Notes under the pieces: model-generated
Told to the model about the DNA's origin: nothing
The model's database searches: none
What the model saw: the letters and a program-made list of their open reading frames with translations, nothing else
Shown: one piece after another, positions 3,601-31,996 of the stretch
Numbering within the stretch: the stretch's first letter is position 1
Layout of the letters: each line of letters opens with the position of its first letter
IMG/VR virus record: IMGVR_UViG_2690316263_000015
Coordinates: 1-32,035 of that record
From: a virus
Taxonomy: Duplodnaviria > Heunggongvirae > Uroviricota > Caudoviricetes
DNA length: 32,035 nt
Direction: 5' to 3' (one strand)
Program-made: the position numbers and the translations under genes

Positions 3601-4353
3601 ATGAACCTTGAAGCCTTACCGAAATATTACTCCCCAAAATCTCCAAAATTGAGCGATGACGCACCGACGACAGGCTCTGGTGGTTTAACAATTACGGATG
3701 TAATGGCTGCGCAGGGGATGGTGCAGTCGAAAGCACCGCTTGGGTTTGCCTTATTCCTGGCAAAAGTTGGTGTTCAGGATCCTCAATTTGCGATTGAAGG
3801 TCTGCTCAATTACGCGATGGCACTGGATAACCCGACATTGAACAAATTGAGTGAAGAAACCCGGTTACAGATCATCCCTTACCTTGTGAATTTTGCCTTT
3901 GCTGATTATTCCAGGTCTGCGGCAAGTAAGGCTCGCTGTGAGCATTGTGCTGGTACTGGATTTCATAATGTATTGCGCGAAGTGGTGAAACACTCCAGAA
4001 GCGGGGAATCTGTTATCAAGGAAGAGTGGGTGAAGGAACTATGTCAGCATTGTCATGGTAAGGGAGAAGTCAGCACAGCGTGCAGAGGGTGTAAGGGTAA
4101 AGGTATTGTCCTGGATGAAAAAAGGACCCGGCTTCATGGCACGCCTGTTTATAAGATTTGTGGGCGTTGCAATGGAAACCGGTTTAGCCGTTTACCAACC
4201 ACACTGGCGCGGCATCATGTCCAGAAGCTGGTACCAGACCTGACAGATTATCAGTGGTACAAAGGATATGCAGATGTCATTGATAAACTGGTTACAAAGT
4301 GCTGGCAGGAAGAAGCATATGCTGAGGCGCAATTAAGAAAAGTGACGAGATAA
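3601..4353 (+). CDS. antitermination protein Q-like late-gene regulator
   Basis: ATG 3601 after GGAGAA. 250 aa with paired Cys motifs (CEHCAGTG ... CQHCHGKG ... CRGCKGKG ... CGRCNG) as in Q-family antiterminators; followed by a promoter plus terminator pair. Confidence 0.7.
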   Translation: MNLEALPKYYSPKSPKLSDDAPTTGSGGLTITDVMAAQGMVQSKAPLGFALFLAKVGVQDPQFAIEGLLNYAMALDNPTLNKLSEETRLQIIPYLVNFAFADYSRSAASKARCEHCAGTGFHNVLREVVKHSRSGESVIKEEWVKELCQHCHGKGEVSTACRGCKGKGIVLDEKRTRLHGTPVYKICGRCNGNRFSRLPTTLARHHVQKLVPDLTDYQWYKGYADVIDKLVTKCWQEEAYAEAQLRKVTR

Positions 4354-5374: not shown

Positions 5375-5399
5375 AGGCTCGCTGCGGCGGGCCTTTTTT
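5375..5399 (+). terminator. intrinsic terminator after the AraC-family gene
   Basis: AGGCTCGC-tgcg-GCGGGCCT hairpin followed by TTTTTTAT. Confidence 0.55.
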
Positions 5400-5537: not shown

Positions 5538-5963
5538 ATGTTTGGTATTTTCAAAAAGAAAACCCGCAAGGCCATTACTGAAGTGAAGAAGATGGAGAAC
5601 CGCGACGCAGTGGAGGCGACCGTCTGGGGCGCGTATTCCATAGCATTCGCCGACGGCACCTGTGATGCGAAAGAAATCGCTGTACTGGAAAAAACCATTG
5701 CAGCACTTCCTGCCTTTGCGCCGTTCTCCGGTGAGATTGCACAAATGAGTGCAAATATCCGCGCCCGTTATGAAGCGTCACCTCGTAGTGCGAATGCTCA
5801 GGCTTTGCGTGAACTGGCTGATGTGGCAGGAACCGCCGAAGCGGTTGATGTGCTGTGCCTGTGTCTCGATATTGCTGACCAGGATGGCATTGGTCCGGAT
5901 GAAGAAGCGCAGCTCAAGAAAATTGCTCAGGCGCTGCAGTTGCCGCTGGAGCAGTACCTGTGA
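5538..5963 (+). CDS. TerB-family (tellurite-resistance TerB-like) protein
   Basis: ATG 5538 after AAAGGAAAAG. 141 aa; the fold pattern (VWGAYSIAFADGTCDAKEIAVLEK ... VLCLCLDIADQDGIGPDEEAQLKKIAQALQL) parallels the two DG-containing helical repeats of TerB. Confidence 0.65.
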   Translation: MFGIFKKKTRKAITEVKKMENRDAVEATVWGAYSIAFADGTCDAKEIAVLEKTIAALPAFAPFSGEIAQMSANIRARYEASPRSANAQALRELADVAGTAEAVDVLCLCLDIADQDGIGPDEEAQLKKIAQALQLPLEQYL

Positions 5964-6112
5964 AAAGTGCGCGCCTTGTGCTGGCTGCCATCCTGCTGTT
6001 TCTGGTAGTGGCGGTGGATTTCACCGGACGGCTGATGTCGGTGCTGGCAGATGGTGTGCTGGTGGCGATGGCGCTGGCCGTACTCTGGCCTTTACTGCGT
6101 AAATCTGAATAA
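5960..6112 (+). CDS. small hydrophobic protein (50 aa), hypothetical
   Basis: GTG 5960 overlaps the TerB stop (GTGA). Translation VKSARLVLAAILLFLVVAVDFTGRLMSVLADGVLVAMALAVLWPLLRKSE is almost entirely one or two transmembrane helices. Too short for the ORF track. Confidence 0.3.
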   Translation: MKSARLVLAAILLFLVVAVDFTGRLMSVLADGVLVAMALAVLWPLLRKSE

Positions 6113-6199
6113 CACCACACAAAAGGTATCTGCGGGTGCCTTTGACGGGTGTTTTTTACGGGTCGTTGGTGGCCCTTTTTTATTTACAGGAGAAAAAGT

Positions 6200-6592
6200 A
6201 TGTCTGAACCCTTGTCCGGTTCCGGTACGGCTGCGGCGCTCGGCGGGGCGACGGTATTCGGGCTGTTTACCGGAACGGATTTCGGGATTGTGTTTGGGGC
6301 GTTCGCTGGGGCGTTATTTGTGGCAACGATGCCGCAGGCGCTTTCAGCCTGGCGTGTGGCGGCGCATTTTCTGGTGTCGTTTATCGTTGGCGTGCTGGGT
6401 GCGCATGTGCTGTCAGCCTGGATTGCATCAAAAACAGGTTATGACGGTACATCGGCGGATGCACTGTGTGCGGTGCTGGTGGCGGTGGTGTCGGTGAAGA
6501 TTCTCTCGTTCATCCACCAGCAGGATATTGCATCGCTGGTGTCCGGCCTGTTCTCCCGCCTGCGGGGTGGAGGAGGCGGCAATGTTAAGTAA
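6200..6592 (+). CDS. putative holin (multi-transmembrane lysis protein)
   Basis: ATG 6200 after AGGAG (6188-6192). 130 aa with Gly/Ala-rich hydrophobic segments and a charged C-terminus; two genes upstream of the endolysin. Confidence 0.45.
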   Translation: MSEPLSGSGTAAALGGATVFGLFTGTDFGIVFGAFAGALFVATMPQALSAWRVAAHFLVSFIVGVLGAHVLSAWIASKTGYDGTSADALCAVLVAVVSVKILSFIHQQDIASLVSGLFSRLRGGGGGNVK

Positions 6593-7835: not shown

Positions 7836-8018
7836 ATGACGCGAAAACACTGGACACACAGAATGCCGCGAACGGCGGTGAAATGGGCACTGGTAGCGAT
7901 ACTGGTGCCTTTTTTCCTGGTGGGCTGCGTCAGCCTGGATAAGGCGCGCCAGCTTTTCGATACAGCTTCTCAGGTCTGTGAAATTGTTGATAGTGTCCGG
8001 CAGTGTATGCAGAACTGA
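7836..8018 (+). CDS. small lipoprotein (60 aa; lipobox LVGC), hypothetical
   Basis: Signal peptide with basic N-region, hydrophobic core WALVAILVPFFLVG, then Cys. Predicted mature peptide about 29 aa (CVSLDKARQLFDTASQVCEIVDSVRQCMQN). Confidence 0.4.
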   Translation: MTRKHWTHRMPRTAVKWALVAILVPFFLVGCVSLDKARQLFDTASQVCEIVDSVRQCMQN

Positions 8019-10760: not shown

Positions 10761-10918
10761 AATCACTAATTGCTGATGTTATCGGGTTGGCTGGTTTTGG
10801 CCTGCTTACGTGCGGGTTTTACCTGCAGTTTGGTATGGCTCCGGCTCTGATGCTGTCCGGCGGTTTACTGCTGGTGGGCGCACTGGCTATGGCCAGAAGG
10901 GGGACGCGTGCTGCTTGA
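10757..10918 (+). CDS. small hydrophobic protein (53 aa), hypothetical
   Basis: ATG 10757 overlaps the TerL stop. Translation [53 protein letters not shown]. Ends just inside the portal gene start. Not in ORF track. Confidence 0.25.
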
Positions 10919-12134
10919 TGCTCTGTTCAGAAGTAAATCACTGGAGAATCCTTCCACCCCGATAACCGGGGATGCCGTTGATACTGATGGGCTGTTCCGG
11001 GCAGACGTTTATGTCAGTCCTGAAACTGCGATGAAACTGGCTGCGGTGTATTCCTGTATCTATGTCCTGTCTTCCAGCCTTGCCCAGATGCCGTTGCATG
11101 TTATGCGCAGGCACAATGGGAAGGTTGAGCCCGCACGCGATCATCCGGCGTTTTATCTGGTTCATGATGAGCCCAATACCTGGCAAACCAGTTACAAATG
11201 GCGCGAACTGAAGCAACGTCACATCCTTGGCTGGGGGAATGGGTATACCTGGGTGAAACGTAATCGTCGCGGTGAAGTCATATCCCTGGATTGCTGTATG
11301 CCGTGGGAAACGACGCTGATGAATACTGGTGGCCGATACACCTACGGTTTGTACAACGAATATGGGGCGTTTGCGATCAGCCCCGACGATATGATCCACA
11401 TCCGTGCGCTGGGTAATAATCAGAAGATGGGGCTGAGTCCGATTATGCAACATGCCGAAACAATAGGCATGGGGATGAGCGGTCAGAAATACACAGAAAG
11501 CTTCTTCAGCGGTAATGCCCGTCCGGCGGGGATAGTATCCGTTAAAAGCGGACTCAATAAGGACAGCTGGGGCTGGCTTAAAGATCAGTGGCAGAAGGCA
11601 TCGCAGGCGTTACGCAGCCAGGAAAACAAAACCATGCTGCTGCCAGCCGATCTGGATTACAAGGCACTGACTGTGTCGCCAGTTGACGCTCAGATCATTG
11701 ACATGATGAAACTGAACCGTTCAATGATTGCCGGTATTTTCAATATTCCTGCGCACATGATTAATGACCTCGAAAAAGCCACCTTCTCCAATATTTCTGC
11801 GCAGGCGATTCAGTTTGTCCGCTACACGATGATGCCGTGGGTGACGAACTGGGAGCAGGAGCTTAACCGTCGCTTGTTTACCCGCGCTGAGTTAGCCGCC
11901 GGGTATTACGTCAGGTTCAATCTGACGGGGCTTTTACGCGGAACTCCGCAGGAGCGCGCGCAATTCTATCACTTCGCTATTACCGATGGATGGATGAGCC
12001 GTAATGAGGCCCGCGCATTCGAGGATATGAATCCGGTTGAAGGGCTGGATGAGATGCTGGTAAGCGTGAATGCTGCTAACCCGGCAGGAGATTTTAAGCC
12101 CCCAAAAAATGATGAGGGAAAAACCAATGAATGA
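10908..12134 (+). CDS. portal protein (HK97 family)
   Basis: GTG 10908 after AAGGGGG. 408 aa; size and position (after TerL, before prohead protease) fit HK97-family portal; C-terminal acidic tail. Confidence 0.85.
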   Translation: MLLDALFRSKSLENPSTPITGDAVDTDGLFRADVYVSPETAMKLAAVYSCIYVLSSSLAQMPLHVMRRHNGKVEPARDHPAFYLVHDEPNTWQTSYKWRELKQRHILGWGNGYTWVKRNRRGEVISLDCCMPWETTLMNTGGRYTYGLYNEYGAFAISPDDMIHIRALGNNQKMGLSPIMQHAETIGMGMSGQKYTESFFSGNARPAGIVSVKSGLNKDSWGWLKDQWQKASQALRSQENKTMLLPADLDYKALTVSPVDAQIIDMMKLNRSMIAGIFNIPAHMINDLEKATFSNISAQAIQFVRYTMMPWVTNWEQELNRRLFTRAELAAGYYVRFNLTGLLRGTPQERAQFYHFAITDGWMSRNEARAFEDMNPVEGLDEMLVSVNAANPAGDFKPPKNDEGKTNE

Positions 12135-12739: not shown

Positions 12740-13969
12740 ATGAAACTGCATGAACTGAAACAGAAACGTAATACTATCGCAACTGACATGCGTGCCCTGA
12801 ATGAAAAAATTGGTGATAACGCATGGACGGAAGAGCAGCGCACTGAGTGGAACAAAGCAAAATCCGAACTGGAAGCGCTTGATGAACGAATTGCACGCGA
12901 AGAAGAACTGCGTCGTCAGGATCAGGCGTACATTGAAAGCAATGAGGAAGAGCAGCGTCAGAATCTTGATCCGGAAAACAATCCGCAACAGGATGAGAAA
13001 CGAGCTCAGGTTTTTGATAAGTGGATGCGTCACGGTGCCAGTGAGCTGACATCAGAAGAACGAAAGGCGTTGCGTGAACTTCGTGCCCAGGGCGTAGCTC
13101 AGGATGAAAAGGGCGGATATACCGTACCAGAAACATTCCTGGCGAAAGTTGTTGAGAAGATGAAATCCTACGGTGGCATCGCCAGTGTGGCGCAGATTCT
13201 TACCACTTCTGACGGTCGCACTATGGAGTGGGCAACAGCTGATGGTACTTCCGAAGTTGGTGTTCTGCTGGGCGAAAATGAAGAAGCCGGTGAAGAAGAC
13301 ACCGATTTCGGTATGGGAAGCCTTGGGGCGCTCAAAATGACATCGAAAATAATTCGTGTGTCTAATGAGTTGCTGCAGGACAGTGCGATCGATATGGAAG
13401 CTTATCTTGCCCGTCGCATTGCTGAACGTATTGGTCGTGGTGAAGCCCGTTATCTGATTCAGGGGACGGGGGCTGGTACGCCTAAACAACCCAAAGGGCT
13501 GGCAGCATCAGTGACCGGCACAACACAGACTGCCGCGGCAAATGCGGTGAAGTGGCAGGAAATTCTGGCTCTGAAACACAGCATTGATCCTGCATATCGT
13601 CGCGGACCGAAATTCCGCCTGGCGTTTAACGATAATACGCTGAAACTGATCAGTGAGATGGAAGACGGTCAGGGACGCCCTTTATGGTTGCCGGATATTG
13701 TTGGTGTGGCACCTGCTTCAGTGTTGAATGTACCGTATGTCATTGATCAGGAAATTGATGATATCGGGGCGGGTAAAAAATTCATGTTCTGTGGTGACTT
13801 TGATCGCTTCATTATCCGTCGTGTGCGATACATGATTCTTAAACGTCTGGTTGAGCGTTACGCGGAATATGATCAGACCGGTTTTCTGGCCTTCCATCGT
13901 TTTGACTGTATCCTGGAAGACACCTCTGCCATTAAAGCGCTGGTGGGGAAAGGTAGCGTTGGTGGTTGA
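12740..13969 (+). CDS. major capsid protein (HK97 family, with N-terminal delta/scaffold domain)
   Basis: 409 aa. N-terminal coiled-coil-like charged region (EEQRTEWNKAKSELEALDERIAREEELRRQ) followed by a capsid core; immediately after the prohead protease. Confidence 0.9.
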   Translation: MKLHELKQKRNTIATDMRALNEKIGDNAWTEEQRTEWNKAKSELEALDERIAREEELRRQDQAYIESNEEEQRQNLDPENNPQQDEKRAQVFDKWMRHGASELTSEERKALRELRAQGVAQDEKGGYTVPETFLAKVVEKMKSYGGIASVAQILTTSDGRTMEWATADGTSEVGVLLGENEEAGEEDTDFGMGSLGALKMTSKIIRVSNELLQDSAIDMEAYLARRIAERIGRGEARYLIQGTGAGTPKQPKGLAASVTGTTQTAAANAVKWQEILALKHSIDPAYRRGPKFRLAFNDNTLKLISEMEDGQGRPLWLPDIVGVAPASVLNVPYVIDQEIDDIGAGKKFMFCGDFDRFIIRRVRYMILKRLVERYAEYDQTGFLAFHRFDCILEDTSAIKALVGKGSVGG

Positions 13970-13994
13970 TTAGTCTTTTTACGTAATACAGCAC

Positions 13995-14037
13995 GCCGCG
14001 TAATGCGGTTTTTTTGTGCCCGCGTTCTGGCGGGCAC
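13995..14037 (+). terminator. two hairpins after the capsid gene (weak terminator/attenuator plus structured leader)
   Basis: CCGC-gtaat-GCGG followed by T7, then GTGCCCGC-gttctg-GCGGGCAC immediately before the SD of the next gene. Confidence 0.35.
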
Positions 14038-14047
14038 AGGAGGTTTT

Positions 14048-14371
14048 ATGCTGTTAAAAATGGAAGAGATTAAGCTTCAGCTTCGTCTGGATGATGATTT
14101 CTCTGATGAAGATGAGTTGCTTGAACTACTTGGGAAGGCCGCTCAGAGTCGGACGGAAAACTTCCTTAACCGTACGTTGTATGCAACCGCAGATGACAAG
14201 CCTGCGGATGATCCTGATGGGCTTGTGATATCTGATGATGTGAAGCTGGCGCTCCTGCTACTTGTCAGCCATTTCTACGAAAATCGCTCAACGGTTACAG
14301 ACGTTGAGAAAATGGAGTTGCCAATGAGCTTTAACTGGTTGGTTGCTCCTTATCGCCTTATACCACTATGA
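14048..14371 (+). CDS. head-tail connector protein (gp6-like)
   Basis: ATG 14048 after GGAGG. 107 aa, acidic, first gene after the capsid gene; typical of gp6-like head-tail connectors. Confidence 0.6.
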   Translation: MLLKMEEIKLQLRLDDDFSDEDELLELLGKAAQSRTENFLNRTLYATADDKPADDPDGLVISDDVKLALLLLVSHFYENRSTVTDVEKMELPMSFNWLVAPYRLIPL

Positions 14372-14778
14372 AAATTCGTCAGGCGCAGACCAGCGCAACC
14401 TACATTCTGCCTGACCCAGGCGAGCTGAATAAACGCGTCCTGATCCGCCAGCGGGTGGATATGCCCGCGGATAACTTTGGCGTGGAGCCTCAATACCCGG
14501 TTGCGTTCCGGGCATGGGCGAAGGTTATCCAGACCAGTGCCACCACCTGGCAGGAAACCGCGCAGATCGGAGATGCCATCACCCATTACATCACCATTCG
14601 CTACCGCCGGGGGATCACTGCTGATTATGAGGTGGTCTGTGATGACAGTGTGTACCGGGTGAAACGTCAGCGTGATCTGAACGGGGCGCGGCGCTTTCTG
14701 CTGCTGGAGTGTACGGAACTGGGTGCCGAAGAACAAATGGGAGGACGCAGTGGAGCAGACAGCATTTTTACACGTTGA
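14368..14778 (+). CDS. head-tail adaptor / head closure protein
   Basis: ATGA overlap with the previous gene. 136 aa; position between connector and gp10-like protein. Confidence 0.55.
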   Translation: MKIRQAQTSATYILPDPGELNKRVLIRQRVDMPADNFGVEPQYPVAFRAWAKVIQTSATTWQETAQIGDAITHYITIRYRRGITADYEVVCDDSVYRVKRQRDLNGARRFLLLECTELGAEEQMGGRSGADSIFTR

Positions 14779-31633: not shown

Positions 31634-31996
31634 TGGTGGAGCTGGCGGGAGTTGAACCCGCGTCCGAAATTCCTACATCCTCGGTACTACATGCTTAGTC
31701 AGTCTTTACATTCGCTTGCCAGCTGCGGACGGACACGCCACTAACAAACTAGCCTGATTAAGTTTTAACGCTTCAACCCCAGGCAGGGCTTCCACGCGAT
31801 CTCTTTTGGGTTTGACCTCTCTTGATCCCCGTCCTAAGAGCGGAGGCTAGGGAGAGAGGGCTCTAAGCAGGTTATTAAGCTGCTAAAGCGTAGTTTTCGT
31901 CGTTTGCGACTATTTTTTGCGGCTTTTTACGAGGCCAACCGCCCCTCGGCATGCACCTTGGGTTTCGCAAATCCCGTCGAATCCAGAATCAGCCCC
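31634..31996 (-). ncRNA. ssrA: tmRNA (transfer-messenger RNA, SsrA)
   Basis: Reverse complement reads GGGGCTGATTCTGGATTCGACGGG ... GGACGCGGGTTCAACTCCCGCCAGCTCCACCA, 363 nt, with the tag reading frame GCAAACGACGAAAACTACGCTTTAGCAGCTTAA (ANDENYALAA) at 31875-31907. Confidence 0.95.

Follow-up and report, generated by a model that had tools for sequence, protein, structure and literature searches.

What do two hairpins standing in tandem between the major capsid protein gene and the head–tail connector gene do, in the middle of the late genes of an SfV-like prophage? The window analysed here is a whole stretch of 32,035 nt, which is such a prophage. Its segment 13500–14500 shares 98.5% identity with Shigella phage SfV and 99.2% with Escherichia phage SKA5, and most of this 1-kb region is present in 259 of 5,426 complete E. 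coli genomes. Strains of E. coli and Shigella with SfV-like prophages number in the hundreds. The late genes lie on the + strand in the order terminase, portal (10908–12134), prohead protease, capsid, connector, head closure protein, tail terminator and sheath. The capsid frame is annotated as capsid or major head protein in SfV, and the connector corresponds to SfV orf6, which is called head–tail adaptor Ad1 in the SfV records. The gap between these two genes is 78 nt, and it is occupied as follows, with the genes that matter to the argument included.

3601–4353, + strand: Q-like antiterminator gene (PHROG 127 'anti-termination protein Q-like', E 1.5e-108)
12740–13969, + strand: major capsid protein gene, HK97 type (from the ORF list; Pfam PF05065 Phage_capsid, E 7e-65)
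13967–13969, + strand: capsid stop codon TGA, read from the sequence
13970–13994, + strand: non-conserved spacer of 25 nt from the capsid stop to hairpin 1
13995–14009, + strand: hairpin 1, made of GCCGC (13995–13999), the loop GTAAT and GCGGT (14005–14009)
14009–14015, + strand: run of seven Ts (T7) that directly abuts hairpin 1 with no spacer
14016–14037, + strand: hairpin 2, a perfect 8-bp stem made of GTGCCCGC (14016–14023), the loop GTTCTG and GCGGGCAC (14030–14037)
14038–14043, + strand: Shine–Dalgarno sequence (SD) AGGAGG of the connector gene, immediately 3' of hairpin 2
14044–14047, + strand: TTTT spacer between the SD and the ATG
14048, + strand: start of the connector ATG, read from the sequence
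14048–14371, + strand: head–tail connector gene, a gp6-like adaptor (Pfam PF05135 Phage_connect_1, E 2.7e-11)

The preliminary description of this DNA had placed two hairpins, a T7 run and a perfect 8-bp stem next to the connector SD, and the sequence bears it out to the base. Hairpin 1 is a weak GC stem with four G-C pairs and a closing G-U. An ATG in its loop shares the reading frame of the connector gene, which would gain 15 codons from a start there (14003–14047). This is an unlikely start, because changes of loop length in the relatives break the frame. At the other end of the connector gene, the head closure gene (14368–14778) begins with an ATG at 14368 that overlaps the connector stop (ATGA). 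That ATG is most likely the true start. The old SfV orf7 (6014–6310 of its record) starts at about window position 14482, which looks too far downstream, since the longer frame matches Pfam Phage_HCP from residue 16 onwards.

The Q-like gene is located upstream of the late genes, and SfV annotates Q at the equivalent place. Its product probably renders late transcription terminator-resistant; Q-modified polymerase is able to read through terminators (PMC3851460). Downstream of the Q-like gene are two strong terminator-like hairpins on the + strand, at 5375–5394 and 7885–7910 (−17.6 and −18.1 kcal/mol). They flank the lysis genes, one before and one after, which is the usual layout of a lambdoid late operon. 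At the end of the window there is a complete tmRNA (ssrA) gene on the − strand (31634–31996, 295.8 bits). It is probably the attachment site of this prophage, which would set the prophage apart from SfV itself.

Taken one sequence at a time, the two hairpins fare differently against chance. Hairpin 2 folds at −19.7 kcal/mol (z −5.4), and none of 200 shuffles folds as well. Hairpin 1 alone gives −7.5 kcal/mol (z −1.0), a value equalled or bettered by 35 of the 200 shuffles. The 91-nt stretch as a whole beats all 200 shuffles (z −3.9). Within this sequence alone, hairpin 2 is the only hairpin that is above chance. A consensus terminator scan of the region found no excess, with 14 sites against 12.3 ± 3.3 in shuffles, and a search of the gap for a + strand promoter at which transcription could restart found none. 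Searching the whole window against Rfam 15 at the gathering score gave no match except the tmRNA elsewhere, and relaxing the limit to an E value of 10 over 13900–14120 returned chance-level hits only (E 1.3 to 7.3), none of them relevant.

The case for the element comes from its relatives. Loci were gathered by way of proteins related to the connector, with the connectors of the window, F1055, EPP-1 and phiP27 as queries. This gave 235 usable loci, whose connector proteins are 47–100% identical. A scan of the genome collection with the connector protein added only four distant loci, none of them informative. In 152 of the 235 loci, representing 55 distinct sequences, hairpin 1, the T-run, hairpin 2 and the SD follow each other in the same contiguous order. 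The spacer that separates hairpin 1 from the capsid stop has diverged beyond recognition, keeping a length of 21–32 nt in most relatives, and both loops vary in sequence and in length, from 3 to about 14 nt. Pairing and covariation were counted in an alignment of 43 of the sequences (A1). There, 97.3% of the cells of the alignment that should pair do so, as against 46–59% when the partners are slid by one to three columns. Fifteen cells have changed on both sides of a pair, compared with 4.8 ± 1.6 in shuffles, and none of 500 shuffles reaches 15. Given the relatives, RNAalifold independently predicts the same two hairpins.

The changes also tell which strand is folded. Canonical cells number 510 of 513 when the + strand is read as RNA and 485 of 513 for the − strand, a difference that arises because the changes are G-U wobbles. 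In hairpin 2, 99.1% of the cells are paired (A1), and the stability in relatives has a median of −18.4 kcal/mol. Its base pair (columns 44–67) covaries, being G-C in 28 sequences, A-U in 11 and G-U in 2. The second pair (45–66) is U-A in 35, U-G in 6 and C-G in 1, and four further pairs vary through G-U only. Since wobbles and compensatory changes such as G-C to A-U keep the pairing, what has been maintained is an RNA structure on the + strand. Its position is maintained as well, with GGAG starting 0–2 nt past the stem of hairpin 2 in every aligned relative.

Hairpin 1 is conserved in another manner. All cells of its stem are paired in all 43 aligned relatives while its loop sequence is free, and the CCGC/GCGG core is nearly invariant, with one-sided changes only and zero compensatory ones in A1. 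What supports hairpin 1 in the alignment is thus that it stays the same between flanks that diverge, and not covariation. None of the T columns varies in A1. Among 58 distinct relatives, in which the median stability of hairpin 1 is −7.9 kcal/mol, the T-run has 5–9 Ts (7 in most) and in every case follows the stem without a gap. The conserved terminator-like unit in the alignment is hairpin 1 plus the T7 run. The suggestion of a weak terminator-like hairpin with T7 in the preliminary description fits this geometry, a GC stem of 4–5 bp abutting the T-run, across those 58 relatives. Hairpin 1 has the form of an intrinsic terminator, with a short GC stem, a loop within the 3–8 nt range and a U-run abutting the 3' side. 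It also has the position of one, being at the end of a gene, in the same orientation, 25 nt past the capsid stop. At −7.5 kcal/mol it is weaker than the two hairpins flanking the lysis genes, which fits a leaky site.

A terminator has in fact been annotated here before, only not on hairpin 1. The SfV record (GenBank U82619.2 / NC_003444.1) carries a "putative rho-independent terminator" at 5547–5584, between orf5 (capsid) and orf6. This is the same locus, and the 56-nt element is 100% identical to that of the window. The SfV feature corresponds to 14015–14052, so it covers hairpin 2, the SD and the TTTT, and not hairpin 1. It could be argued from this annotation that hairpin 2, extended into the SD by U:purine pairs and followed by the TTTT at 14044–14047, is the real rho-independent terminator and that hairpin 1 is incidental. 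The terminator scan does give a 14-pair stem at 14010–14043 followed by TTTTATG, and the extended stem reaches −22.7 kcal/mol. The lower part of that stem, however, consists of weak U-G and U-A pairs, and the core GC stem runs not into U but into AGGAGG, with the TTTT 6 nt further on. The TTTT between SD and ATG is found in only 15 of 55 distinct relatives, the others having ATCCT, AAGTCT or AAAAT, while the invariant T-run sits upstream of hairpin 2, abutting hairpin 1. For these reasons, hairpin 2 as the terminator seems very improbable, and the SfV reference annotation probably marks the wrong hairpin.

The reading that we prefer, with a probability of roughly 55%, is that the element is a weak, leaky terminator followed by a stable hairpin on the read-through RNA, which together would lower the expression of the neck genes relative to capsid. 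Starting from the structures, their strand and position, and their conservation and covariation, we infer termination, its leakiness, the fate of the read-through RNA and the protein ratios along the following lines. Hairpin 1 with U7 would act as a weak intrinsic terminator that halts a fraction of the polymerases, mostly those not modified by Q. Transcripts ending at U7 would cover the genes through capsid, and not the neck and tail genes. Hairpin 2 would form in read-through RNA only, as a very stable and strongly selected stem between the U-run and the connector SD, and there it most likely serves in one or both of two roles: as a barrier to 3'-to-5' exonucleases that guards the capsid message, or as structure at the ribosome-binding site of the connector. 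The net outcome would be more capsid protein than connector and neck protein. Hairpin 2 has the features of an intercistronic stabilising hairpin, being stable, conserved as RNA and just downstream of a highly expressed gene.

Several considerations weigh against this preferred reading. Hairpin 1 by itself is no more stable than shuffled sequence, and the changes in its stem are one-sided. With a Q-like antiterminator upstream, read-through of an intrinsic terminator should be permitted, which may blunt any attenuation. A strong step-down would be costly, since many copies are required of the tail sheath and tube as well, whose genes lie further downstream. In the phiP27 group (L006 2000–2030 and loci L206–L234), which has a different capsid type, the spacer is 0 to −12 nt, and the stop codon TAA either falls within the loop of hairpin 1 or immediately precedes the hairpin, at gaps of −12, −9 or 0 nt. 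A ribosome terminating there would cover the hairpin, which speaks against a terminator.

Because Q passes terminators, the attenuation by hairpin 1 may be small, and we therefore give substantial weight to a purely post-transcriptional explanation, even while we consider it on the unlikely side. It holds that there is little or no termination under Q and that the hairpins act on the finished polycistronic RNA, so that differential mRNA stability sets the ratio. Either hairpin 2, and more weakly hairpin 1, would block 3'-to-5' exonucleases once the RNA has been cleaved further downstream, or RNase E would cut the single-stranded U-run, so that the capsid message would end in a hairpin and the neck and tail message would begin with one. 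The U-run does lie unpaired between two stems, hairpin 2 is the stable and covarying structure of the two, and several variants have UUCG and GNRA-type loops. As to Q, the upstream gene is in place, and letting polymerase pass terminators is what Q does (PMC3851460). What such an explanation leaves unaccounted for is the T-run abutting hairpin 1 in every relative, which is the signature of an intrinsic terminator, and hairpin 1 is too weak to make a good exonuclease barrier.

In the SfII-type relatives (83 loci), a single strong hairpin without a T-run is found 7 nt past the capsid stop, and it is kept in 24 variants. It is GGGGCGCG-GAAC-CGCGCCCC (L005 1750–2001 and 82 similar loci), the 8-bp first stem within a fold of −20.2 kcal/mol at L005 1750–1790. 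Retention of a strong hairpin after the capsid gene where there is no T-run favours the post-transcriptional explanation. These relatives also have an extra frame of 66 codons between capsid and connector. In a more distant relative (L238), whose connector is 47% identical, a single canonical terminator is found at the same place, in favour of the terminator reading. What the family has in common is that a stable RNA hairpin follows the capsid gene, and this suggests that the element influences what becomes of the RNA, by protection or processing of a 3' end, besides termination or instead of it.

The preliminary description had further proposed that the hairpins could attenuate transcription past the capsid gene, so as to set the stoichiometry of head to tail proteins, and/or modulate translation initiation of the connector gene. 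The structures are real, on the sense strand and conserved as RNA, so that a part in expression at the capsid/connector boundary has a sound basis. The part about translation initiation failed the controls applied to it. In its most explicit form, hairpin 2 would set the U-run beside AGGAGG, and U:A and U:G pairs would hide the SD, throttling connector translation, possibly in a temperature-dependent way like a fourU switch. Folding predicts the window SD to be 94% paired to the U-run; its probability of being unpaired is 0.06 in the native sequence and 0.96 when U7 is replaced by A7. RNAalifold likewise extends hairpin 2 into the SD, and in every relative the U-run, hairpin 2 and the SD form one uninterrupted series. 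But any U-run pairs with any purine-rich SD, so that a pairable fraction of 95% is uninformative, and the extension is worth only about 3 kcal/mol. The SD partner is not conserved either, since in many relatives it is predicted to be a CUCCU in codons 2–6. Finally, the cost of opening the SD is not above that of shuffled upstream sequence; the fraction of shuffles at or above the real value is 0.02–0.91, with the window at 0.14. On these folding models, we take SD clamping as a weak possibility and not as a finding, and a rather improbable one. Examples of the CUCCU in connector codons 2–6, predicted to pair with the gene's own AGGAG SD, are seen in the F1055 and phiP27 lineages (L002 2030–2058 and L006 2040–2068).

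The element also sits at a module junction. Among loci found by a scan of viral contigs with the pattern GCGG-T7-RTGCCCGY, the KALTGK-type capsid is found with either the MLLKMEEIK or the MAAIVEKLR connector, joined in both cases by the element. In one locus (L286), a phiP27-type capsid end with hairpin 1 is fused to hairpin 2 and the connector of another lineage. The element is thus a recurrent crossover point between the head and neck modules. This raises the question of whether the sequence is kept mainly as a shared linker for homologous recombination of those modules, the hairpins being a by-product or a feature at the level of DNA. The DNA of phiP27 becomes similar to that of the window exactly at hairpin 1 (query 495, window 13994), and the same hairpins join different capsid and connector partners. 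The alignment argues otherwise: pairing on the + strand only, kept by wobble and compensatory changes, speaks for selection on RNA structure, and a loop length of 3 to about 14 nt excludes a protein site on DNA with fixed spacing. A role in crossover is compatible with a conserved function, and probably a consequence of the conservation of the element. We therefore regard recombination as the main reason for its maintenance as quite improbable.

Motifs of similar appearance turn up outside this family. Bacillus phage vB_BspP_Dartukuta (MW749009.1 56298–56339; L241 2500–2545) has a near-identical tandem motif (90.7% identity over 43 nt, E 4e-7), which reads GCCGC-ATCA-GCGG, T7, GTGCCCGC-GTTATG-GCGGGC. 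The phage is unrelated, and its copy of the motif occupies GC-rich, non-coding DNA upstream of an antirepressor-like gene. Similar tandem motifs occur in L244, L268 and L310. The scan of viral contigs with GCGG-T7-RTGCCCGY also found this shorter pattern in other phage contexts (L255, L277, L294, L343, L353, L318 and others), often directly followed by a short GCCCG hairpin. One example is just upstream of genes of 150–215 aa that start MSVSLPNGSL and look like major tail proteins. Placing a hairpin right after the U-run of a terminator could be a design of wider use; alternatively, the base composition favoured by the search pattern could account for these finds.

These observations touch on a more ambitious version of the post-transcriptional explanation, in which hairpin 1, U7, hairpin 2 and the SD form one dedicated cassette that would work even if Q abolishes termination, through either the RNase E cut or the SD clamp, and that, being conserved across head and neck modules that are otherwise unrelated, would double as the standard joint for their exchange. 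We rate this version as improbable.

Four other candidates were rejected. Function on the minus strand, or as a bidirectional terminator, is disfavoured in that A7, and not U, comes after hairpin 2 when the − strand is read, and 25 wobble cells become C-A mismatches. A DNA palindrome for a dimeric protein does not go with loops of free sequence and of 3 to about 14 nt. An antitermination RNA of the boxB/nut or put type was set aside on account of the non-conserved loops, the position in mid late operon and the absence of Rfam support. Lastly, the two hairpins could pair with each other, as both have the form CCGC...GCGG; reading the sequence, such cross-pairing would give only 4–7 bp, against 5 and 8 bp in the separate stems, and would need non-conserved loop bases.

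Our literature search turned up no specific description of hairpins in tandem downstream of capsid genes of the HK97 type. Intercistronic stabilising hairpins are known from the malE-malF REP elements, the 3' hairpin of papA and the puf hairpins of Rhodobacter. In these systems, a stable stem-loop follows the gene whose product is most abundant; it shields the message upstream of it, and the genes of one operon come to be expressed unequally. By their anatomy, both hairpin 2 and the SfII-type hairpin without a T-run would fit this class. They differ in that their sequences are unrelated to REP, and hairpin 2 lies directly against the next SD, a position that stabilising hairpins need not have. 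In fourU RNA thermometers, such as that of Salmonella agsA, a U-run at the foot of a hairpin pairs with AGGA in the SD. The U-run of the window is likewise predicted to pair with the AGGA of its SD at the base of hairpin 2, but here the pairing is neither conserved nor above chance, and the stem above it is much too stable to be melted. A terminator tail is a better explanation for the U-run than a fourU element.

Terminators associated with capsid genes form the other comparison. In T7, the terminator Tphi follows gene 10. A terminator right after the capsid gene is described for both T7 and the T7-like phage LUZ100 (PMC10134795). The likeness lies in the placement directly behind the capsid gene, where a terminator raises the level of capsid mRNA over that of the genes that follow. 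Those terminators, however, are strong and act on the single-subunit RNA polymerase of the phage, whereas the polymerase here is that of the host, the hairpin is weak and antitermination by Q is likely. A further comparison is the P22-like phage L, for which an intrinsic terminator is predicted within the late operon, behind the module of procapsid genes (PMC8022706). As in the window, it lies inside a single late operon controlled by antitermination, right after the head genes. It belongs to another phage group and has another sequence, and it is described as a single hairpin, with no adjacent second hairpin at the next SD. The roles of such terminators "are not known"; partial termination or the blocking of spurious transcription have been suggested (PMC8022706).

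Judged by comparison with its relatives, the two-hairpin element is real, strongly conserved and folded as RNA from the sense strand, and it is an ordinary feature of a kind already annotated. A conserved RNA signal at the border between capsid and neck genes agrees with what is assumed for many phages and changes little in that picture. The gains are modest: the hairpin that the reference annotation marks can be reconsidered, hairpin 2 is seen to be a separately conserved RNA structure, and a recurrent crossover point is located. If the element is indeed a dedicated cassette, then the GCCCGC-type hairpins after U-runs in unrelated phages would belong to a wider, undescribed design rule. Being so well conserved, the element offers a convenient test case for the terminators found inside antitermination-controlled late operons (PMC8022706).
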